DNA of 64,000 nt from Dehalococcoidia bacterium (GTDB lineage: Bacteria > Chloroflexota > Dehalococcoidia > Plut-88900), in contig CBDBLV010000004.1 in assembly GCA_965207225.1 (NCBI GenBank), positions 320,001 to 384,000 on the forward strand. The letters run 5' to 3'. Position numbers and translations under genes: made by a program. Every line of letters starts with the position of its first letter. Position 1 is the first letter of the stretch. Under the pieces are notes generated by a model, which did no database searches, was not told the DNA's origin, and saw only the letters and a list, made by a program, of their open reading frames with translations. Below, piece after piece: positions 10,764 through 59,722 of the stretch.

Positions 10764-12458
10764 CTACCCGACCGTCACCGCTCCCCGAGACGCCGAGGTA
10801 GCCAGCCTCGCGTACTTGACCAGGGCCCCTGATGTGTAGTTTGGGGGTATCGGGGCCCAGGCCGCGAGTCTGCGGTCGAATTCTTCCTGGGAAATTTCGA
10901 GGTTAAGCTGGGCGTTGGGAATGTCCAGGATAACGGTGTCACCCTCTTCAACGATAGCGATCGGCCCCCCGACCGCCGCCTCGGGCGCCACGTGCCCGAC
11001 CATGAAGCCCTGGGTAGCTCCCGAGAACCGACCGTCGGTTATCAGCGCCACGTCTTCCCCCAACCCCTGCCCCACGATGGCGGCCGTCACGTGCAGCATT
11101 TCCCGCATTCCCGGCCCGCCCTTGGGTCCCTCGTAACGGAGCACCACAATGTCTCCCGCCTCGATTTCCTGGTTGTCCACGGCCCGGAAGGCGTCCTGCT
11201 CCCGATTGAACACCCGCGCCCTGCCCCTGTGCACCTTGTGCAGATGCTCCGGGTGGGCCAGCTTCACCACCGCACCCTCCGGAGCGAGGTTGCCCTTCAG
11301 TATCACCATGGAGCCGTGAGGACTCAGGGGTTCGGCCACGGGATGAACTACCCTGCCGTCTCCCGGGATTTCCACGTCGGCCAGGTTCTCCGCTACGGTC
11401 TTGCCTGTCACGGTCAATGTATCCCCGTGGAGTAGCCCGGCGTCCAGGAGCCGTTTCATGACCGTGGGCACGCCGCCCTCCCGATGTAGGTCAACCATCA
11501 CGTGTCGGCCCCCGGGCTTCATGTCTGCGATGTAGGGTGTCCGTTCGCTGATCCTGGCGAAATCTTCAATCTCCAGGTCCACGCCTGCTTCGTATGCTAT
11601 CGCCAGCAGGTGTAACACGACGTTGGTGGAACCACCCATCGAGACAGCCACCGCGATGCCGTTCTCAAACGCTTCCCTGGTCAGAATGTCCCGGGGCCTA
11701 ATCCCCTGCTCCAGCAGCCTCATCACCGTGCGCCCGGCCTCGTATGACTTCTGTAGAATGCCCTCTTCAACCGCCGGCTCGGACGAGGCCCCCGGCAGCG
11801 ACATTCCCATCGCCTCGATGGTCGAGGACATGGTGTTCGCCGTGAACATGCCGCCGCAGGACCCGGCGCCCGGGCAGGCGGCGCACTCGATGTCCTTCAA
11901 GTCAGAGTCGCTTATCCGGCCCTTGCTGTGCGCCCCGATGGCCTCGAAAACATCCTGGATACTTATGTCCTTGCCGGCGTATCTGCCGGGCATGATGGTG
12001 CCGCTGTAGAGGAAGACGGTTGGGATGTTGAGTCGGGCGGCGGCCATCATGGCCCCAGGCAGGTTCTTGTCGCATCCGGCGATGGTAACCAGGCCGTCAA
12101 AGTACTCGGCGTGGGTGACCAGTTCAATGGAGTCAGCGATCAGCTCCCGGCTCACAAGCGACGCCTTCATCCCTTCCGTCCCCATCGAAATCCCGTCGCT
12201 TACCGTCAAAACCCCGAACTCAAAGGGAGTCCCCGACGCCGATTTCACCCCCGCCTTGACCCTCTCCGCCAGCTTGTCCAAGTGAACGTTGCAGGGCGTC
12301 ACGTCCGACGCGGTATTCGCCACCCCGATGAACGGCTGCTCAAATTCCTTATCCCCGACTCCCACAGCCCTGAGCATGGCCCTCGCGGCGGCCCGGTCAG
12401 GGCCGTCAGCCACAATTCTGCTGCGATGCCTAACGTCGAATTTTGCGGCCGTGGTCAT
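10764..12458 (-). CDS. ilvD: Dihydroxy-acid dehydratase
   Basis: Motifs [39 protein letters not shown] and TDGRFSG. Confidence 0.97.
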
Positions 12459-12610
12459 CTATTTCTCCTCCGGGCATGTTCACGTCTATTTCGGCGGACA
12501 TGATAGCACACCCCACACCCTTCTCCTCTTTCATTCCGATGCCCCGCGAGGAATCTAGGATTTGCCCACTCACGCCTCTAAACCCCGCCACTCCCTCAAA
12601 ACCTGTACAT

Positions 12611-12639
12611 TTGCACTATCTGAACCCCCGTGCTATAAT
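12611..12639 (+). promoter_or_regulatory. Sigma70-type promoter firing into the non-coding region
   Basis: TTGCAC-17 bp-TATAAT with an extended -10 TG. Confidence 0.7.
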
Positions 12640-12896
12640 GATCCCCAGGCTGCCGACTTCACACCTCGGCGCCCATCACTATGCAGGATCAAAGGAGTAC
12701 CATGAGCCGCATAAGCCTACACAGGCCTCGTCTCAACCGAGCGGCATCCCGCCGCCCGGCCCCCGGTACGCGCCTCCTCCCATTCTCCTTTCCCTTTCCA
12801 TACTCCGTCCTGCTCCCCAACACCCACTACAAGCGCTGCCCAAAGGCCCAGCGTCTCGGCCTTCGCAGCGATCAATCACCACCCCGCCCCCTTCAA

Positions 12897-13466
12897 GGAA
12901 GGTCCCCGGACAAATCACGGCACACCCTCTGGAGGGCCGTTGCCAGGTGAGCGCCCCACTCATAGGGCGCAACGGTTTCGCCCCGTCAGGCGACGCTAAG
13001 GAGCACGGTGTAATGCTGCTTCATCGGGCCATAGCGTCCTTTTTGGACTCCACCGTCGTCACCATCGGCAAGCTCCGATCTACGAACGGCGGTCACGGGT
13101 CCTCGCTCTCACCCCTTGGGGTGGCAGAGCACTTCCGGTGGGCGAGACTGCCCCAGAGCGAGAATTTCTCGTGTCTCGTCCGCGTCCCCTCGGAAGTATG
13201 GGGCTGTGATTCCACCGTCGTCACCATCGGCATGTTCCGGTCTACGAACGGCGGTCACGGGTCCATGCTCTCACCCCTTGGGGTGCTAGAGCGCTTCCGG
13301 TGGACGAGGCTGCCCCAGAGCGAGAATTTCTCGCGTCTCGTCCACATCCCCTCGGAAGTGTGGGGCTGTCGCAGAATCGACGCTGATGTGGACCGTCCCC
13401 GGGGGCGAACACCCCGCATCGGTACAGGCGTCGCCGACATCCTGCGCAAACCGTCCGGGACCTTCC
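12897..13466 (+). ncRNA. Candidate large structured ncRNA, copy A (two tandem modules)
   Basis: The ends GGAAGGTCCCCGGAC and GTCCGGGACCTTCC are complementary. There are many internal hairpins with G-U pairs on the + strand. Homologous to 53472-53779 (-). Confidence 0.55.
13049..13369 (+). repeat. Tandem direct repeat, period 162 bp (13049-13207 and 13211-13369)
   Basis: Alignment by eye gives 14 substitutions and no indels over 159 nt. Confidence 0.95.
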
Positions 13467-13502
13467 ACCCTCACTCCCTTCCCGCCACCCCAACCTTTTA
13501 CA

Positions 13503-13630
13503 CCGTCATCCCCGCCACCGGCGCTGGGCCGCTCGTGCTGAGGTTCTCGAAGTGCGAGCGGGGGGCGGTCCACACCCGACTGTCACGTCTCGCCAGTCAC
13601 CCCCGCCTACCCTATGCCGTCATCCCCGCC
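13503..13630. repeat. REP-like palindromic element bounded by the direct repeat CCGTCATCCCCGCC
   Basis: CCGTCATCCCCGCC at 13503 and 13617. Hairpin CCGCTCGTGCT-GAGGTTCTCGA-AGTGCGAGCGG at 13529-13561. Confidence 0.6.
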
Positions 13631-13784
13631 CTTCTTCCCAGTATTGAACTAGAGGCAGAGGTTGGCGCTGGAGCGCCAACCTCTGCCTCTGTTTTTCTCT
13701 CCCCCTCTCCCTCAATGGCCCTGAGGGAGAGGGGGATCAAGGGGGTGAGGGTTCCTCCGCGGGGCTGGGGGGGCATCCTCCCCC
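13629..13784 (+). repeat. Composite hairpin element, copy 1
   Basis: CCCAGTAYTGAACTAGAGGC, a perfect 19-bp inverted repeat (13651-13690), a CCCCCTCTCCC/GGGAGAGGGGG stem, then GAGGGTTCC. Homologous to 54083-54260 (-). Confidence 0.8.
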
Positions 13785-13822
13785 GATGCCACGCGAAATC
13801 CCCAGAAATCCCTTCAGGCGTC

Positions 13823-13875
13823 GTTCAATCAAACCAGCTACGAGTTCAATCAATGTTCAATCAACGTTCAATCAA
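13823..13875 (+). repeat. Four copies of GTTCAATCAA with helical phasing
   Basis: Copies start at 13823, 13844, 13855 and 13866. Confidence 0.85.
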
Positions 13876-13891
13876 AATCCCATCCCTCTCG

Positions 13892-13920
13892 TTGACCCAC
13901 CCGACACGCCCCCTTATCAT
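13892..13920 (+). promoter_or_regulatory. Sigma70-type promoter of the enoyl-CoA hydratase gene
   Basis: TTGACC-17 bp-TATCAT, with an AAGGAG RBS before ATG 13983. Confidence 0.65.
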
Positions 13921-13982
13921 TGGGCCAGTCATAACCCGCTTCATTCCTGGCACAAGACCCTCACGCTGCAAGGAGACCGCCG

Positions 13983-14783
13983 ATGTCCTACGAGAACATC
14001 ATCGTCGAAAGAGATGGCCGCATAGGCAAGCTCATCCTCAATCGACCCAACAAGCTCAACGCCATCACCGACTACATGGAAGAGGAGATGGCCCTTGCTA
14101 TCAAGGAGTTGGGCGATGATGACTCCGTAGGTGTGGTGGTGCTGACCGGTGCAGGTCGAGCCTTCTCCGCCGGCGCCGACGTGTCCGAGCTCCCCGGTGC
14201 CGAGTCCAACGGCCGAGGCGACAGCCCCGAGGACAAGCGGCGCAACTTCCGTAAGGCGATGAACATAGTGCTGGGTGTGCACCGGATGGAGAAGCCGGTC
14301 ATCGGCATGATCAACGGCGTAGCCGCCGGCGCCGGATTCGACCTGGCCTGCGCCTGCGACCTCCGGGTCGGCACCCCCAAGTCCCGGTTTCTTGCGGCGT
14401 TCATACGGGTGGGGCTGTTCCCGGGGTGGGGCGGGATGTGGCTCTACGCCAAGACCCTCGGCATCCCCAAAGCCGCCGAACTGGTCTTCACCGGCGATTT
14501 CCTGGAAGCCGACGACGCCTTCCGGCTCGGCATGTTGAACAAGCTGGTCCCCGAGGAGGAGCTTGAGGCCACCACCATGGAGATGGCCCGCAAGATCGCC
14601 GACGGCCCCCCTGTAGCCCTCAGGCTCTCGAAGCTGATGCTCTACAAGGCCCTCAATATGGACCTGGAGACCGCCATGCAGATGTCCGCTGCGCTGGAGA
14701 CCATCACCTTGACCTCAGAAGACCACACCGAGGGCGTCTCGGCTTTCAAGGACAAGCGTAAGCCAAATTACCTGGGCCGCTAG
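13983..14783 (+). CDS. Enoyl-CoA hydratase/isomerase (crotonase) family protein
   Basis: Motifs LNRPNKLNA, AFSAGAD, INGVAAGAGFDLACACD and EGVSAFKDKRKP. Confidence 0.93.
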   Translation: MSYENIIVERDGRIGKLILNRPNKLNAITDYMEEEMALAIKELGDDDSVGVVVLTGAGRAFSAGADVSELPGAESNGRGDSPEDKRRNFRKAMNIVLGVHRMEKPVIGMINGVAAGAGFDLACACDLRVGTPKSRFLAAFIRVGLFPGWGGMWLYAKTLGIPKAAELVFTGDFLEADDAFRLGMLNKLVPEEELEATTMEMARKIADGPPVALRLSKLMLYKALNMDLETAMQMSAALETITLTSEDHTEGVSAFKDKRKPNYLGR

Positions 14784-52800: not shown

Positions 52801-53292
52801 CTATCCTTCTTCCTCTTCCTCCGCCGGGGTGTATTTGTGGAGCTTGTCCATGCTCTCCAGCAAGTCGGTGTAGAGGGAGCCCTGGATGTGCCCGACCTCA
52901 TGCTCGAGGGCCTGGGCGAGGAGTTCGGTGGCCTTGATGCGCACTTCCTTGCCGGCCAGGTCCAGCCCTTTGGCGACTACGGTCTCGGCGCGCTTGATTT
53001 CGCCGCGGTAGCCGGGGATGCTGAGGCAGCCTTCGTTGACTTCCCGTTCGCCGGTCTTCTTGACTATTTCCGGGTTGATAAGGGTGATGATTTCCTCGTC
53101 GGGTATGCCTATTACTATGACACGCAGGGAAACCCCTACCTGAGGCGCCGCGATGCCGACGCCGTCGTAGGCGTGCATGCTCTCGACCATGTCCTTGGCG
53201 AGCTTCTTGATGTAGGAGTCGATGGCCCGGACGCGCTTGGCTTTCAGGCGCAGTATGGGGTCGGGGGTGACTTTAAGAGGAAGTACGGCCAA
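52801..53292 (-). CDS. def: Peptide deformylase
   Basis: [15 protein letters not shown] and HEVGH; TTG start. Confidence 0.95.
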
Positions 53293-53374: not shown

Positions 53375-53471
53375 GGTTAGGCGCTCGTCGGGGGGGCCGG
53401 TGAAGCATCGGGGGTTTATTCAGTTGTGGGGTCTCGGTTTTCGTTTTGATTGTTCTGTCGGGTTTTGGGTC

Positions 53472-53779
53472 GGCGATGGAAGGTCCGGGACTCAGTTTCA
53501 GGGGGCGGGAGGCCAGCCTGGTTCAGCCCCGTGTTCCTGTGTCACATGGCAGACAAACGAGGGGTTCTCGCCTGAGGGCGTCTCTACCACCAGTTTCTCA
53601 GTTTTCCCGACCCACTCGGAGGGGTGGGTGGGTGTTTTCTCGCTGCCGTCGCTGGGTTTATGGGAATCTCCGAGGGGAACGACGGGGGAGATTTTTCCAA
53701 GGGCGTAATTGCCCGAGGTTTTTCGGCAGGGCTCCTAAGTGAGGAGCGTGCCGCTTAATGTTGTGGACCTTCCATCGCC
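53472..53779 (-). ncRNA. Candidate large structured ncRNA, copy B (single module)
   Basis: Perfect 15-bp terminal inverted repeat GGCGATGGAAGGTCC. The module at 53523-53690 aligns with the 162-bp repeat unit at 13049. Confidence 0.55.
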
Positions 53780-54034
53780 TGGATGGATGGGGAAGGGGCA
53801 CGGGACCCTTGGGTTGAGGAGATGGCGCCCCCGACTTCTCGGGGGCAGGCTTTTCGCTTGTGCCACAACCTGCCGTCCTCGCAAGGGGGGGCGATTGGCC
53901 GGTCGCCTCCCTATGGGAGGGGAGAGGTCTTGGGATGGGCTAGGGCGTTGAGTCCTCTTGGGTCTCGGGGGCTTCCCTTAGGTTTTTGGTTCCTCCTTTG
54001 ATGATGTGACTTAGTGTTCGATCAGACGCAGGGT

Positions 54035-54063
54035 ATGATAGTACCATCGGACAGCTGTGTCAA
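54035..54063 (-). promoter_or_regulatory. Sigma70-type promoter firing into the non-coding region
   Basis: TTGACA-17 bp-TATCAT on the minus strand. Confidence 0.7.
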
Positions 54064-54082
54064 GAGCAAATGTGCGGCTTTT

Positions 54083-54260
54083 GGGGGAATATCCCCCAGC
54101 CCCCCAAGGGAACCCTCTCCCCCTTGGTCCCCCTCTCCCCCTCGAGGGACTCGGGGCAGGCTCTTAGGGCCTTTAAGGGAGAGGGGGAAAGAAGAACAGA
54201 GGCCCACGTGGGCGCGCTGCACCCACGTGGGCCTCTAGTTCAGTACTGGGGAGGAAGGGG
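54083..54260 (-). repeat. Composite hairpin element, copy 2
   Basis: The reverse complement aligns with 13629-13784. Long hairpin at 54198-54236. Confidence 0.8.
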
Positions 54261-54307
54261 ATGGCTCGGTTTGGGGGACATGCAAGTCTTAGCGTGGGTG
54301 GCGGGCA

Positions 54308-54371
54308 GGGTACCCACGAGGGGCACCCCTACGGGGGAGGGGATGGATTCCGGCTCGGGGGCCGGAATGAC
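54308..54371 (-). repeat. Two REP-like palindromes (GTAG-type and GTCATTCC-type) downstream of priA
   Basis: Minus strand GTAG-GGGTGCCC-CTCGT-GGGTACCC and GTC-ATTCCGGC-CCCCGA-GCCGGAAT. Confidence 0.65.
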
Positions 54372-54381
54372 GATTGGAGGG

Positions 54382-56805
54382 TTAGAGGAGGGTTACGGGG
54401 TCTACTTCGACGGCCCAGCCGTCTCCGGGGCCAACTTTTTTGAGGAGCAGTCCGGGTTCGTTGCCGCGGATGAGGACCTGCCAGCGGTAGCGGCCCTTGA
54501 CCCTGGGGATGAAGCAGGGAACGGGGCCGAGAACTTCGGTCTGGGGAAGGCCGAGCCGGTCACATTCGTGGCGGAGGGCCAGGGCGACACGACTGGCCTC
54601 AGTCTCGGCTTTTTCGGCATTGACCTGGGAGTGGGTGAGCCTGGTGAGTCGGGCGAAGGGGGGGTAGCGGTTCTGGAGTCGGTAGTAGATTTCCTGGCGG
54701 GAAAATCGCTCGTAGTCGTGGGCAGCGACGGAGCGGATGGCGTAGTGCTCAGGGTTGAAGGTCTGTATGACGACGCGCCCGCCTCCCGGGCCCCGGCCCG
54801 CTCGACCGGCGACCTGGGTGAGAACCTGGAAGACGCGTTCGCCGGCACGGTAGTCGGGGAAGTTGATGCCGACGTCGGCGCTCATGACGCCCACGAGGGT
54901 GACCTGGGGGAGGTGGAGACCCTGGGCCACCATCTGGGTGCCGACGAGGATATCGATCTCGCCGGACTGGAGCTTGCGGAGGACCTCCTCGTGCTCGGCC
55001 TGGTCGGAGGCGGTGTCCCTGTCCCAGCGGAAGGTGCGGGCGCCGGGAAACCGGGAGCGCATTTCCTGCTCGATGCGCTGGGTGCCTGCTCCGATGTACC
55101 CGAGGTCGGGGCTGCCGCACTGGCGGCACATCTGGGGCCTGTTGATGCTGTAGCCGCAGTGATGGCACAGGAGCCGGCCCAGGGCGCCGTGATAGACCAG
55201 GGAGACCTCACAGCGTCGGCACTGTACTACGTTTCCGCAGTGGCGGCAGTGGACGGAGGTAGAGAAGCCCCGCCGGTTGATGAAGAGGATGATCTGTTCT
55301 CGGGCGTCGAGGGCCCTGGCCATCTCGGTGCGGAGGAGGCGGCTGAACATGTCGCGGTTGCCGCTGGTAAGCTCCTTCTTCATGTCGACCACGTCGACCC
55401 GGGCCAGGGCCGAGTCCTCAGTGCCCTGGCGGATGCGCCGGGGGAGCTCCAGGAACTCAAGCTCGCCGGTTGCGGCCCGGTAGGAAGTGGTCACGTCAGG
55501 GGTAGCACTCCCCAGAATAACCACCGCGCAGGTAAGCCGGGCCATTTCCAGAGCGGCCTCCCTGGCATGATAGCGGGGGGCGGGCTCCGACTGCTTGTAG
55601 GAGGCATCGTGCTCTTCATCGAGGACGATAAGGCCGAGGTCGGGCTGGGGGGAGAAGAGGGCGCTCCTAGGTCCGATGACGACGCCGAACTCGCCCTGGT
55701 GGATGCGCCACCATTCGTCGAACTTCTCGCCGGGCTTTAGTCGGCTGTGGAGGACGGCGACCTGGCCCGGGAACCGGGAGCTGAAGCGCTGCACGGTCTG
55801 GGGGGTGAGGGAGATCTCGGGGACGAGGACAATGCCACGCCGCCCGAGTTTCAGGGTGCGTTCCAAGGCACGGAGGTAGATTTCGGTTTTGCCACTCCCC
55901 GTGACTCCCCTGAGCAAGAACGCCTTACTTTCCCCACCCGACGCCACATCCTCCAAGGCTTTTTCGATGGGTTCCCAGGCATATTGCTGGTCTTCCGTGA
56001 GGTCGGGGGCGGAGATCTGTTTGTAGTGCCTGGAGGCGAGGGGGTCGCGGATGACACGAACCTTCTTGCTGGCGGCCACGCCTCTCGATACCAGGGCCTT
56101 GATGGCTGTAGGCGAAATGCGTCTTTCCCTCAACTCGGAAACGGAGATGCCCTGCGGTTGTTCGAAGAGGGCGTCGAGGAAGGCACGCTGGTTGACGGCG
56201 TTAGACTTCAGGTTGGCGAGAGATAGGGCGTGCTCGGGGTCGGGCTTTAGGTAGTACTGGGTCTCGTACTTGGCGGAGACGGCGGGGCGGGGAAGCTCCC
56301 ATTCGCGGGTCACGACTCCGATCCTGACCAGGGAGTCGAGCCTCTGCTGGGCCCTTCCTCCGAGCTCCTTCCTCAAGGCTGGGAGCTGCGAGCGGCCCAG
56401 CTCTTTCAGGGCATCCAGGGCTTGTTGTTGGGGGTCGTTCGGAGAGAAGGAGTCGGGCCAGGGGGCGAGGGAGTAGAAGGTGCGCACACGACGGCGCACG
56501 CCCTGGGGTAGCATCACGGAGGCGGCTTCGAAGAGGGAGCAAAGGTAGCGAAGGCTGGTCCATCGTGAGAGGGAGAGGTGGTGGGGTGAGAGGAGGGGTA
56601 CAGGGTCGACGAGGCCGACGACGTCCCGGGTCTCCTGGAAGGCAGGGGCCTCGGTGACTTCGAAGACAATGCCCTGAAGGGTACGACGCCCGAAGGGGAC
56701 CCAGACGCAGTGGCCGGGTTCCACTTTGAGGTTGCCAGGGATGGAATAGGTGAAGGTACGGCCCGGTTCCAGCGGGGCGTCGACGGCTATTTCAGCGAAT
56801 GGCAT
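54382..56805 (-). CDS. priA: Primosomal protein N'
   Basis: GVTGSGKTEIY, LVPEISLTPQ, DEEH, four CxxC pairs, GTQM and QVAGRAGR. Confidence 0.97.
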   Translation of the reverse strand: MPFAEIAVDAPLEPGRTFTYSIPGNLKVEPGHCVWVPFGRRTLQGIVFEVTEAPAFQETRDVVGLVDPVPLLSPHHLSLSRWTSLRYLCSLFEAASVMLPQGVRRRVRTFYSLAPWPDSFSPNDPQQQALDALKELGRSQLPALRKELGGRAQQRLDSLVRIGVVTREWELPRPAVSAKYETQYYLKPDPEHALSLANLKSNAVNQRAFLDALFEQPQGISVSELRERRISPTAIKALVSRGVAASKKVRVIRDPLASRHYKQISAPDLTEDQQYAWEPIEKALEDVASGGESKAFLLRGVTGSGKTEIYLRALERTLKLGRRGIVLVPEISLTPQTVQRFSSRFPGQVAVLHSRLKPGEKFDEWWRIHQGEFGVVIGPRSALFSPQPDLGLIVLDEEHDASYKQSEPAPRYHAREAALEMARLTCAVVILGSATPDVTTSYRAATGELEFLELPRRIRQGTEDSALARVDVVDMKKELTSGNRDMFSRLLRTEMARALDAREQIILFINRRGFSTSVHCRHCGNVVQCRRCEVSLVYHGALGRLLCHHCGYSINRPQMCRQCGSPDLGYIGAGTQRIEQEMRSRFPGARTFRWDRDTASDQAEHEEVLRKLQSGEIDILVGTQMVAQGLHLPQVTLVGVMSADVGINFPDYRAGERVFQVLTQVAGRAGRGPGGGRVVIQTFNPEHYAIRSVAAHDYERFSRQEIYYRLQNRYPPFARLTRLTHSQVNAEKAETEASRVALALRHECDRLGLPQTEVLGPVPCFIPRVKGRYRWQVLIRGNEPGLLLKKVGPGDGWAVEVDPVTLL

Positions 56806-59568: not shown

Positions 59569-59633
59569 CGCACAGTACTGGTACACTTCGGATGGCCAAA
59601 AGCCGCATCATCCATGCCCAAAAGCCCCGCCCC

Positions 59634-59661
59634 AGATTCCTCGCGGGGCATCGGAATGACA
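59634..59661. repeat. REP-like element of the ...ATTCC...GGAATGAC type
   Basis: AGATTCCTCGCGGGGCATCGGAATGACA shares the ATTCC/GGAATGAC ends with 54345-54371. Confidence 0.5.
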
Positions 59662-59722
59662 GTTATACAAGGCGCTCTTGATGGAAAGGAGGCCTTCTTA
59701 GGCTAGTTTTGGGCTTTCCCAG

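Follow-up and report, generated by a model that had tools for sequence, protein, structure and literature searches.

Putative structured upstream-leader cassettes in front of ech, def and other genes in an uncultured Dehalococcoidia genus

Two cassettes upstream of ech and def

The window is a stretch of 64,000 nt from an MAG of an uncultured Dehalococcoidia bacterium. It contains two long intergenic regions of shared layout: copy A on the plus strand upstream of the enoyl-CoA hydratase gene ech, and copy B on the minus strand upstream of the peptide deformylase gene def (Table 1). Each belongs to a type of cassette whose parts follow in the order sigma70-type promoter, 5′-proximal Shine-Dalgarno sequence (SD), C-rich leader, a stem of inverted arms around one to three modules, and CA-rich tail. 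The SD lies within ~30-50 nt of the predicted start; promoters here are consensus predictions, and SD complementarity is assumed because the pattern search missed the 16S 3′ end.

In copy A, the motifs, layout and tandem modules described in an earlier note on this DNA were all recovered, including the promoter, ATCAAAGGAG and the GGAAGGTCC/GGACCTTCC pair. GGAAGGTCC begins at 12897, 258 nt past the -10 hexamer, and its complement GGACCTTCC occupies 13458-13466. The tandem repeat at 13049-13369 has a period of 162, 2.0 copies and 91% matches. Among five aligned A copies, similarity has a sharp 5′ edge at the promoter-like site, from ACATTTGC (-35), and ends just past the 3′ arm. The C-rich leader (12646-12896) has a fold z of -4.5. 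The terminator-like module that stands between copy A and ech, a hairpin followed by a T run, recurs at 89 places in the genome.

The ATG at 12702 opens a class-A leader ORF, and both SD and ATG are conserved in class-A elements. The frame of the window copy is shifted by a 1-nt deletion near 12930, which may be an assembly error rather than a real loss, and the continuing frame is open to 14119. A 558-aa ORF at 12443-14119 was rejected as a gene: it starts upstream of the promoter, has a junk-like translation and matches no Pfam family. It is the class-A frame carried on past the shift.

The layout of copy B was likewise located on the minus strand, with its promoter, ATCAAAGGAGG and the arms GGCGATGGAAGGTCC and GGACCTTCCATCGCC; the closing stem proposed for it is present, with a length of 15 bp rather than 9 bp. 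Its type of promoter-like site is conserved among B-type copies. A terminator-like site between the copy B tail and def, on the same strand, was not found. Both downstream genes have promoter-like sites of their own, as the earlier note had predicted, at 13892-13920 for ech and at 53374-53346 (minus strand) for def.

Contigs from one RNA-library run (X1) map to pieces of 53467-53999, with several differences from the window sequence. These contigs are short and carry no start, end or strand information; they show that the family is represented in an RNA library, but not that copy B itself is transcribed. Both 54042-54500, where the upstream terminator and hairpin modules stand, and most of def are free of contigs, an absence that weighs nothing.

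Table 1. Features of the two cassette loci in the window
Feature	Positions	Strand	Details
Copy A promoter-like site	12610-12639	+	TTTGCA/TTGCAC, 17-18 nt, TG-TATAAT; 10/12 matches, TG extension
Copy A C-rich leader	12646-12896	+	C 44.6%, G 18.7%
Copy A SD ATCAAAGGAG and ATG	12688-12704	+	SD itself 12688-12697; ATG at 12702
Truncated class-A ORF	12702-12950	+	82 codons plus stop
Copy A 5′ arm of closing stem GGAAGGTCCCCGGAC	12897-12911	+	begins with GGAAGGTCC
Copy A module 1	13046-13207	+	~161-nt six-helix module; R1 159.3 bits
Copy A module 2	13208-13369	+	tandem copy; R1 159.3 bits
Copy A 3′ arm CCGTCCGGGACCTTCC	13451-13466	+	includes GGACCTTCC at 13458-13466
Terminator-like hairpin and T run	13650-13701	+	between copy A and ech
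ech promoter-like site	13892-13920	+	TTGACC-17-TATCAT
ech (enoyl-CoA hydratase)	13983-14783	+	gene that copy A faces; PF00378, E 9.3e-55
Terminator-like module upstream of copy B	54197-54237	-	
Copy B promoter-like site	54035-54063	-	TTGACA-17-TATCAT; 11/12 matches
Copy B orphan SD ATCAAAGGAGG	53992-54002	-	~28 nt from predicted start; no start codon after it
Copy B leader	53780-54028	-	C 38%, G 23%
Copy B 5′ arm GGCGATGGAAGGTCC	53765-53779	-	
Copy B single module	53524-53692	-	R1 134.2 bits
Copy B 3′ arm GGACCTTCCATCGCC	53472-53486	-	
Copy B CA-rich tail	53400-53471	-	A 43%, C 36%; repeated ~30 times
def (peptide deformylase)	52801-53292	-	gene that copy B faces; PF01327, E 1.6e-42

Family extent, RNA structure and genomic setting

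The earlier note had placed this architecture at two loci, whereas ~35 stem-closed elements are present in the window's own genome, and the cassette family occurs in all 8 of the 8 congeneric genomes. By arm count, the own-genome set comprises 30 elements with 15-bp arms (17 perfect, 13 with one mismatch) and 5 A-type elements; nhmmer recovers 17 A-type and 38 B-type promoter modules. The covariance model that the note had called for, built on the ~161-nt module and termed R1, gives 40 matches in the same genome. BLAST finds the cassette in none of three other genera of the same family (0/3). R1 finds it in 5/5 genomes of the genus, in 0/1 of another genus of the family, and in 7 of the ~144 remaining genomes of the class, with a single weak match of 24-44 bits apiece. 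By these searches, the cassette family appears essentially genus-restricted.

Cassettes vary within a fixed order of parts. The closing stem measures 15 bp in most types and 9+6 bp in A, and the distances between arm starts define interiors of 286-290, 309, 327-333, 346, 363-365, 378-384 and 443 nt. Among the five aligned A copies, one has a single module and four have two, with a 78-nt extra insert in two of those four; each B copy has a single module, to which a 25-nt hairpin insert may be added. The repeated unit begins at the promoter, with the 5′ arm following ~300 nt later, and the orientation of the interior relative to the promoter is always the same. The elements are embedded among a mosaic of further repeats.

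Rfam 15 at gathering scores returns no match across the whole window, and its E-value mode at both loci returns solely miRNA-like matches far below threshold, on flanking hairpins, in keeping with the note's impression of an RNA family not previously known. A limited literature search found no account of the cassette, which does not by itself prove unpublished status.

The modules of the two copies are alike above the level of chance, but only modestly so. Global identity between A and B modules is 103/173 columns. The local score z is 5.5 for the first A module against B (0/1000 shuffles reach it), 2.6 for the second (24/1000 reach it) and -0.2 with the reverse complement. Single-sequence nhmmer at E 1e-3 fails to retrieve A-type modules with B-type modules or the reverse, and the likeness of A and B rests on the pairwise scores together with intermediates and the shared architecture.

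The B-type alignment alone (50 copies) has 84% column identity and only 4/71 predicted pairs changed on both sides; it is too conserved, and covariation was therefore measured on a more diverse set of 29 modules. In these, the paired fraction of cells is 94.9%, versus 90.8% after shuffling, and 36 cells are changed on both sides, against 15.7 (0/500 shuffles reach either value); slid controls are 34-57% paired. The ratio of G.U to A.C on the promoter strand is 108:12 in the modules and 196:26 in B cores, and the B core folds with a z of -6.69 on the promoter strand versus -2.28 on the opposite strand. Helix covariation and the large excess of G.U over A.C on the promoter strand together indicate that the structure is selected in RNA. 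Compensatory change and G.U excess thus bear out the observation in the earlier note that stems keep their pairing, with mostly G-U mismatches on the promoter strand. The ~161-nt module stands out cleanly as a candidate new RNA family, and its covariance model is usable.

With gene starts taken from a home-made caller, 32/34 elements have a co-directional downstream gene. The regions they occupy (n = 34) are 16 tandem co-directional, 16 divergent, 2 tandem anti-directional and 0 convergent, and B promoter modules are co-directional at 30/33 places. The note had called the elements independently transcribed. A promoter-like site of their own is indeed present, but whether they are independent of the gene downstream is doubtful, because nearly all elements face a gene start and none lies between convergent genes. 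All 30 scanned downstream genes fall into functionally unrelated Pfam families, with rpoB, nusA, recA, gyrB, rpsB, rpsO, leuS and def among them, which argues against a riboswitch or gene-specific cis-regulator and agrees with the note's choice of a modular multi-copy element over a riboswitch. A terminator-like module separates core and gene in 11/34 elements, copy A included, and follows the core in 7/11 elements with A-type promoters versus 4/23 others; most B-type copies lack a terminator before the gene.

Across relatives, arms are found upstream of def in 8/9 genomes and upstream of rpoB and nusA in 3/5 genomes each. The proximal promoter-like site of ech is kept in 6/6 genomes read, whatever cassette stands upstream, with a varying first hexamer (TTGCCC-type in five other genomes, read by eye). 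Since both window genes retain such proximal sites, the cassette would not be required for basal expression. Cassette class and core type at the same site differ between species, a turnover that fits selfish replacement as well as function. At def, ech, rpoB, nusA, recA and rpsB, the relatives have no clean empty site and instead carry another cassette or unalignable sequence; no filled/empty pair that would reveal target-site duplications was recovered. In the own genome, left and right arms never stand 1-4 kb apart, and hence an autonomous partner sharing these ends is not seen there.

Reading frame of class A and class B elements

Class A elements carry an ORF that begins at the SD-ATG and runs for 190-580 codons. 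Across 21 class-A elements (14,112 nt), stops per frame number 5/114/56, with all five in the window copy; the ORF is thus open in 20/21 copies, although the copies are kin rather than independent and the signal is partly inherited. Class-A indels measure 6, 21, 3, 78 and 240 nt, apart from the 1 nt of the window copy. The ORFs traverse terminator-like and other repeat modules and stop between -327 and +286 nt of the start of the next co-directional gene in 12/12 usable cases. The earlier note had treated copy A as an ncRNA, which is not confirmed: the class to which it belongs maintains a reading frame and is not plainly noncoding.

The sequence of the encoded protein itself evolves neutrally. 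The pN/pS of class A is 0.90 in the ATG frame versus 0.90 and 0.65 in the other frames, and differences are evenly spread over codon positions (257/312/236). Third positions are slightly more variable in unpaired columns (0.89 versus 0.72 and 0.71). A Pfam scan of the ORF products finds no family, and AlphaFold2 (67 sequences) gives a mean pLDDT of 48 and a pTM of 0.15 with no secondary structure. Class-A proteins share nothing past the 3′ arm. A public collection holds at least 354 similar predicted proteins, all unnamed.

Class B is more numerous and better conserved than class A. ATG, GTG or TTG occurs 8-30 nt after the SD in 0/64 B-type elements, and stops per frame number 200/221/193, so that no frame is open. 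The genome encodes Rho, RNase J (561.7 bits, cut-off 400) and RNase III, all above curated cut-offs.

Interpretation against known systems and rival explanations

The large Rfam ncRNAs OLE, GOLLD, ROOL, HEARO and raiA are usually present just once or a few times per genome. The cassette resembles them in being several hundred nt long, multi-helix and covarying; it differs in its many copies, in having no Rfam match, and in forming a promoter-SD unit aimed at diverse genes. Known leader peptides are short, from a few codons to some tens, and each senses specific amino acids. As in leader-peptide attenuators and in translated upstream ORFs coupling translation to termination, an upstream ORF and then terminator-like hairpins precede the gene in class A, and the leader is C-rich and G-poor, of the kind preferred by Rho. 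Unlike leader peptides, the class-A ORF is 190-580 codons long, is not tied to a particular sequence and stretches over the entire intergenic region.

Pneumococcal BOX and enterobacterial BIMEs are modular mosaic intergenic repeats with a variable number of internal modules and stable hairpins, and the cassette shares their fixed module order with variable internal-module number. Repeats of the BOX, BIME, Correia and ERIC type are ~100-300 bp long, occur in both orientations and lack an SD or ORF. The cassette, in contrast, points toward a gene almost throughout, contains a 161-nt multi-helix module, and has a G.U:A.C asymmetry indicating selection at the RNA level. Correia elements and ERICs are named as promoter-bearing repeats in PMC3575422, which describes putative mobile promoters as strongly similar non-coding upstream regions before non-homologous genes of one genome (Nijveen, Matus-Garcia, van Passel 2012; PMC3575422). 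Its authors leave their movement unexplained and allow that RNA motifs may travel along (PMC3575422). The cassette is similar in placing a homologous promoter-bearing region, with promoter activity predicted here from consensus, before non-homologous genes; those mobile promoters, however, are defined on 50-100 bp and mostly in pairs (PMC3575422), whereas the cassette unit is 600-900 nt with dozens of copies. The SD, the stem-closed RNA module and the maintained class-A ORF go beyond that definition.

STAB-SD stabilises the cry3A mRNA of Bacillus thuringiensis from its 5′ end (Agaisse and Lereclus 1996, described in PMC4113751). Class B is like it in bearing GGAGG near the 5′ end without a translation start; class A has an ATG and is not. 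The presence of RNase J in the genome adds to the likeness, with stabilisation and 30S binding putative for class B. Unlike STAB-SD, the cassette SD precedes a ~500-nt structured leader and lies within a repeated cassette. Taken against these systems, the cassette is an unusual form of a known kind of repeated regulatory DNA.

The reading tentatively preferred here, with somewhat less than even confidence, is that both loci are genus-restricted, high-copy, portable, ribosome-loaded structured upstream-leader cassettes. Each would be transcribed from its own promoter toward the next gene, supplying a further long structured 5′ leader or an upstream transcript. In class B, a 30S subunit may dock at the start-less SD, close to the 5′ end, in the manner of STAB-SD, and the docked subunit and folded domain could shield a transcript reading into the next gene, which is def for copy B. 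In class A, translation would begin at the SD-ATG, and the ORF would be selected solely for remaining open through the structured core and the terminator-like hairpins until the next gene is reached. Ribosome transit may hold off Rho, RNases and terminator hairpins, such that transcription begun at the cassette promoter would depend on translation to enter the gene. The window copy of class A would have lost this translation-dependent read-through by its 1-nt deletion, unless that deletion is an assembly error. The data show the architecture, the copy number and orientation of the cassettes, covariation at the RNA level, the maintained frame and the neutral evolution of the protein; transcription from the cassette promoters, 30S docking, protection, read-through and the way the cassettes spread are inferred.

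A reading along the lines of the earlier note, in which these are independent trans-acting stable structured RNAs, each cassette an RNA gene with its own promoter, is considered unlikely. It would have the closing stem mark processing or guard the ends, would give the modules some function of their own, and would derive the orientation bias from harmful antisense read-through alone. The promoter at the sharp 5′ edge, the strong closing stem, the covarying helices with their G.U excess on the promoter strand, the terminator-like module past 11/34 cores (copy A among them), the promoters retained by downstream genes and the RNA-library contigs inside the element are all consistent with it. It sits poorly, however, with the complete absence from convergent regions, where a self-contained RNA gene would be harmless, and with the lack of a terminator ahead of the gene in most B-type copies. 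A 5′-proximal SD and a class-A frame open to the next gene would have no role in a free ncRNA, and a trans-acting RNA does not usually come as dozens of diverging copies whose interiors can be exchanged. A second rival reading is that of selfish non-autonomous DNA repeats of MITE- or BIME-like kind, spread or swapped by recombination, with the arms as terminal inverted repeats, the promoter and SD as passengers, and selection merely purging harmful insertions.

Perfect 15-bp inverted arms around interiors of differing length and sequence, high copy number within one genus, different cassette types at one site across species and a setting among other repeats all speak for such repeats, yet their probability is also put low. 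The unit of similarity starts at the promoter and not at the arm, the interior keeps a fixed orientation relative to the promoter, 32/34 elements point toward genes, and the class-A frame is maintained; moreover, the G.U:A.C asymmetry points to selection in the RNA of one strand, not in DNA. An ordinary MITE, which the earlier note had named as the outcome that would undo its proposal, would fit the inverted arms, but no arm pair 1-4 kb apart, and so none enclosing a transposase-sized insert, exists in the own genome. It is very unlikely that class A elements are genes for fast-evolving disordered Arg/Pro/Ser-rich proteins with 54-residue repeats and class B their decayed non-coding relatives. 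The SD and ATG, the frame open in 20/21 copies, indels in threes, a module of exactly 54 codons, the predicted proteins in the public collection and the slightly more variable third positions in unpaired columns would fit a protein family. Against this, pN/pS in the ATG frame is no lower than in the others, differences are even over codon positions, and the products have neither a Pfam family nor predicted secondary structure. The ORFs also cross terminator-like and repeat modules, end wherever the next gene begins and share nothing beyond the 3′ arm, and class B is the more numerous and better conserved of the two.

Under the preferred reading of portable upstream-leader cassettes, a further and rather doubtful step would make class A a new portable expression device, in which a promoter and a "sequence-free" long ORF, by bringing ribosomes over the folded module and terminator hairpins to the next gene, tie read-through into housekeeping genes to translation capacity, with class B as its ribosome-docking untranslated sister. 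Together with the standardised terminator modules, many upstream regions of the genus would then have been put together anew from interchangeable standard parts. If so, an exchangeable promoter-leader family would front core genes (rpoB, nusA, recA, gyrB, ribosomal protein genes and def) as natural standardised regulatory parts, and class A would exemplify selection that holds a frame of several hundred codons open while indifferent to the protein. This would bear on gene callers, as the ORFs filed as unnamed predicted proteins would be of this kind, and on how long leaders are kept in check by translation, Rho and RNases.

Layout and distribution of the cassettes

Copy A, upstream of ech, and copy B, upstream of def, each contain a promoter, a Shine-Dalgarno (SD) sequence, a C-rich leader, and an inverted-arm stem that encloses modules of about 161 nt. 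The earlier note described this layout and its motifs accurately at both loci; the closing stem it saw in copy B is present but longer than it reported. Promoter calls throughout are consensus matches. The downstream genes' own predicted promoters, also claimed there, are seen for both ech and def, and no terminator-like hairpin lies between copy B and def on the copy B strand. Copy B holds a single unit akin to the copy A units, with identity in 103/173 columns; local scores of A against B units stand at z = 5.5 and 2.6 relative to shuffles, and the reverse complement at z = -0.2. A check against Rfam proposed in the same note returned 0 matches to known families at gathering scores in the window and nothing credible in E-value mode.

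Features of the window cassettes, their accompanying repeats, and one alternative core in relatives
Feature	Position	Strand	Details
Copy A promoter-like site	12610-12639	+	10/12 consensus matches, TG extension
Copy A SD ATCAAAGGAG	12688-12697	+	ATG at 12702
Copy A arm GGAAGGTCC	12897	+	complement at 13458-13466
Copy A tandem units	13049-13369	+	two of 162 nt, inside arms, 91% alike
Strong terminator-like hairpin between copy A and ech	13650-13691	+	
ech own promoter-like site	13892-13920	+	
Copy B promoter-like site TTGACA-17-TATCAT	54063-54035	-	11/12 consensus matches
Copy B SD ATCAAAGGAGG	54002-53992	-	no start codon downstream
Copy B stem GGCGATGGAAGGTCC with GGACCTTCCATCGCC	53779-53765 with 53486-53472	-	perfect 15 bp
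def own promoter-like site	53374-53346	-	
Terminator-like module	13620-13700; 54195-54245		89 places in genome
Second hairpin module ccctctccc ... gggagaggg ... gggggtgagggttcc	13700-13790; 54105-54195		129 places in genome
REP-like short hairpin repeat cattccgatgccccgcgaggaatc and complement	12509-12570; 59608-59670		about 25-43 copies (BLAST cover)
Tandem 11-nt repeat GTTCAATCAAC	13844-13875 (within 13800-13880)		2.9 copies
Hairpin core of about 57-nt units, loci L125/L130/L129: gcggatgcc...gcggatgatttcccgctccgcc...	~880-1200		gene-oriented numbering (loci stored reverse-complemented)

The earlier note counted two loci; the genome (4.03 Mb searched, 5 contigs) carries 35 elements, comprising 30 closed by 15-bp arms in a motif scan (17 perfect, 13 with one mismatch) and five A-type cores, a core being the arm-closed part. 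Promoter-leader modules detected by BLAST and nhmmer number 17 of A type and 38 of B type, and cores number 5 of A type and 14 full ones of B type, besides other core types. Arm starts are spaced in groups of 286-290, 309, 327-333, 346, 363-365, 378-384, and 443 nt, and interiors from different groups do not align with one another. The only repeated stretches in the 64-kb window are 12509-13888, 53384-54376, and the short hairpin repeat at 59608-59670. Parts differ in copy number: the terminator-like and second hairpin modules reach about 115, the arms and tail of copy B about 30, its interior 13, and stretches along copy A 4-15.

Both queries match 8/8 congeneric genomes (12-34 matches each), 0/3 other genera of the family, and at most one borderline site in another 29 genomes of the class. 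The covariance-model search of this and other Chloroflexota genomes that had been proposed was run with R1, a module model of 161 positions and 30 pairs. It finds 40 matches in the window's own genome and, among 151 class genomes sampled, at least 18-19 scored matches in that genome and in each of all 5 congeners. The single sampled genome of a different genus in the family has none (0/1), and beyond the family 7 of about 144 class genomes have one weak match each (24-44 bits). The sole out-of-genus match of notable score, G043:C37:6664-6824 (43.8 bits, E 1.2e-8 per genome), lies in a genome from another family.

RNA structure and reading frames

On the promoter strand the B core is far more stable than shuffles (z -6.69), an advantage that shrinks greatly on the opposite strand (z -2.28); the A core scores -6.75 and -5.18, respectively. 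Fifty B cores from 7 genomes say little on covariation, with 4/71 predicted pairs changing on both sides, because they are too alike (84% column identity). A more diverse set of 29 modules (<93% identity, thinned from 121 full-length matches) yields a consensus of six helices and 30 pairs, in which 94.9% of cells pair, compared with 90.8% in column shuffles (0/500 reach this). Both-side changes affect 7 pairs against 4.0 shuffled (4/500 reach) and 36 cells against 15.7 (0/500); when the structure is shifted by 1-3 columns as a control, pairing drops to 34-57%, with 2-8 such cells. The earlier claim that stems are kept by compensatory change thus gains moderate support, since kin sequences can beat shuffles without structure.

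The ratio of G.U to A.C cells is 108:12 for the modules and 196:26 for the B cores; restricted to pairs whose majority is Watson-Crick, it is 55:11 and 58:23. The structure behind these counts was predicted on the promoter strand, a choice that favors G.U. The 13 one-mismatch arm pairs on that strand comprise 5 G.U, 8 U.U, and 0 A.C in the authors' reading. Both the size of the G.U excess and the asymmetry in z-scores still point to selection on the RNA of the promoter strand.

Elements with A-type promoters carry an SD and an ATG (class A). From the ATG to the 3' arm end, 21 elements of this genome and its relatives (14,112 nt) contain 5/114/56 stops per frame, counts that overstate independence because the copies are kin. 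All five ATG-frame stops belong to copy A of the window, where a single 1-nt deletion, possibly an assembly error, shortens the ORF to 82 codons; other gaps among 7 A-core copies measure 6, 21, 3, 78, and 240 nt. The module equals exactly 54 codons. Class A ORFs of 576-1596 nt run on through terminator-like and other repeat modules. In 12/12 usable cases of 16 (set aside were the window copy and three with an intervening antisense gene), they end within a range from 327 nt inside the next co-directional gene to 286 nt short of its start. Elements with B-type promoters have a start codon 8-30 nt past the SD in 0/64 cases and an even stop distribution (200/221/193 in 31,952 nt).

Genomic setting and exchange at shared sites

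The typical order is terminator-like module, second hairpin, promoter, leader, core, and gene. Gene calls come from a home-made caller (3,251 genes, 83% coding), with approximate starts. All 30/30 downstream proteins scanned, out of 34, have Pfam families with unrelated functions; two opposite-strand neighbors and two others were omitted. Information-processing and housekeeping genes include rpoB, nusA, recA, gyrB, rpsB, rpsO, def, leucyl- and glutamyl/glutaminyl-tRNA synthetases, RNase HII, and RNase D. Metabolic genes include moaA, fructose-bisphosphatase, catalase-peroxidase, sulfite reductase, ETF, amidohydrolases, and luciferase-like oxygenases. One gene encodes an IS481-type transposase (rve, HTH, and LZ_Tnp_IS481 domains) at locus L081 (G000 contig C1, 37613-40354), where the cassette has 384 nt between arm starts; no sign links this transposase to the cassettes.

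The terminator-like module matches the orientation of the downstream gene at 64/87 places and of the upstream gene at 41/87, which argues that it acts as part of the upstream region and not as the preceding gene's terminator. Its flanks, ccagtactgaactagagg ... cctctgttcttct, are conserved, and its stem sequences vary among copies yet stay paired. It follows the core in 7/11 elements with an A-type promoter versus 4/23 others (authors' count). The second hairpin usually lies between this module and the cassette promoter. The stretch that holds the GTTCAATCAAC repeat has about 32-38 copies genome-wide, sits between the second hairpin and the ech promoter, and is also found after the A copy on contig C3. 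The REP-like copy at 59608-59670 lies between convergent ORFs.

Arms occur upstream of def in 8/9 genomes of the genus, with starts 293-383 nt apart. Only this genome and the one most closely related to it have the A-type cassette ahead of ech. Of the remaining 7 loci, five were read, and the proximal ech promoter-like site is retained in 5/5. Locus L124 (G005) has a B-type promoter, an SD, and a different core (800-1260), whose closing stem retains the outer 9 bp of the arms and has compensatory replacements of the inner 6 bp on both sides (GGCGATGGA-TAGACGC with GCGTCT-TCCATCGCC). At L125, L130, and L129 (G007, G004, G002), tandem hairpin units without GGAAGGTCC arms lie behind an A-type promoter, SD, and ATG; the fifth locus has other sequence. 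A motif search places both arms ahead of rpoB in 3/5 relatives, nusA in 3/5, recA in 2/5, and rpsB in 4/5, with promoter class varying between species. Cassette positions are therefore long-lived, but their occupant is exchangeable.

Competing explanations and proposed role

A free structured RNA would suit the folds and is unlikely. One RNA-library run (X1, contigs only) contains family sequence: six short contigs match 53467-53596, 53711-53812 (on to 53981-53999), 53790-53829, 53887-53957, and 53915-53957 with 0-6 differing letters per matching piece, and one further contig lies inside def. This is only a hint that family members are transcribed, as the contigs show neither strand nor ends and RNA libraries can contain DNA. 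Orientation counts against a free RNA: of the 34 elements (among 35) with both neighbors called, 32 share the direction of the downstream gene and 16 that of the upstream gene, and the regions are 16 tandem co-oriented, 16 divergent, 2 tandem anti-oriented, and 0 convergent (authors' count). Promoters point toward the downstream gene at 30/33 B and 11/16 A places.

Selfish, MITE-like DNA is similarly improbable. In five A copies aligned with their flanks, similarity sets in sharply at the -35 region, not at the 5' arm, and ends just past the 3' arm; a single module is present in one copy, and two copies have 78 nt of additional inserted sequence. A family of genes for disordered proteins, which the open frame would allow, is very unlikely. 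AlphaFold2 gives the class A product pLDDT 48, pTM 0.15, and no secondary structure, and public collections hold at least 354 such unnamed predicted proteins, nearly all listed clusters being single-sequence. The product matches no Pfam family, and nothing beyond the 3' arm is common to 67 aligned relatives. pN/pS is 0.90 in the ATG frame and 0.90 and 0.65 in the others; differences spread evenly over codon positions (257/312/236), and in unpaired columns third positions show no more than a slight excess. The protein sequence is not conserved.

The preferred reading, held tentatively, treats each cassette as a portable transcription unit, placed upstream, that sends a long structured leader, loaded with ribosomes, toward the next gene. 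The swapping of cassettes at fixed sites and the flanking modules they share suggest spread by recombination, not cut-and-paste. RNase J, Rho, and RNase III are all encoded in the genome. Class B may act as a STAB-SD leader, in which, according to PMC4113751, an SD near the 5' end binds the 30S subunit without translation start and blocks 5'-3' decay by RNase J. Class B likewise has an SD near the predicted 5' end without a start codon, in a genome that encodes this nuclease. The class A leader would instead be translated. Rich in C (44.6%) and poor in G (18.7%), it has the composition that Rho prefers. With the frame open over the folded core and terminator hairpins up to the gene, ribosome transit may stop Rho loading and hairpin formation, and read-through into the gene would therefore depend on translation.
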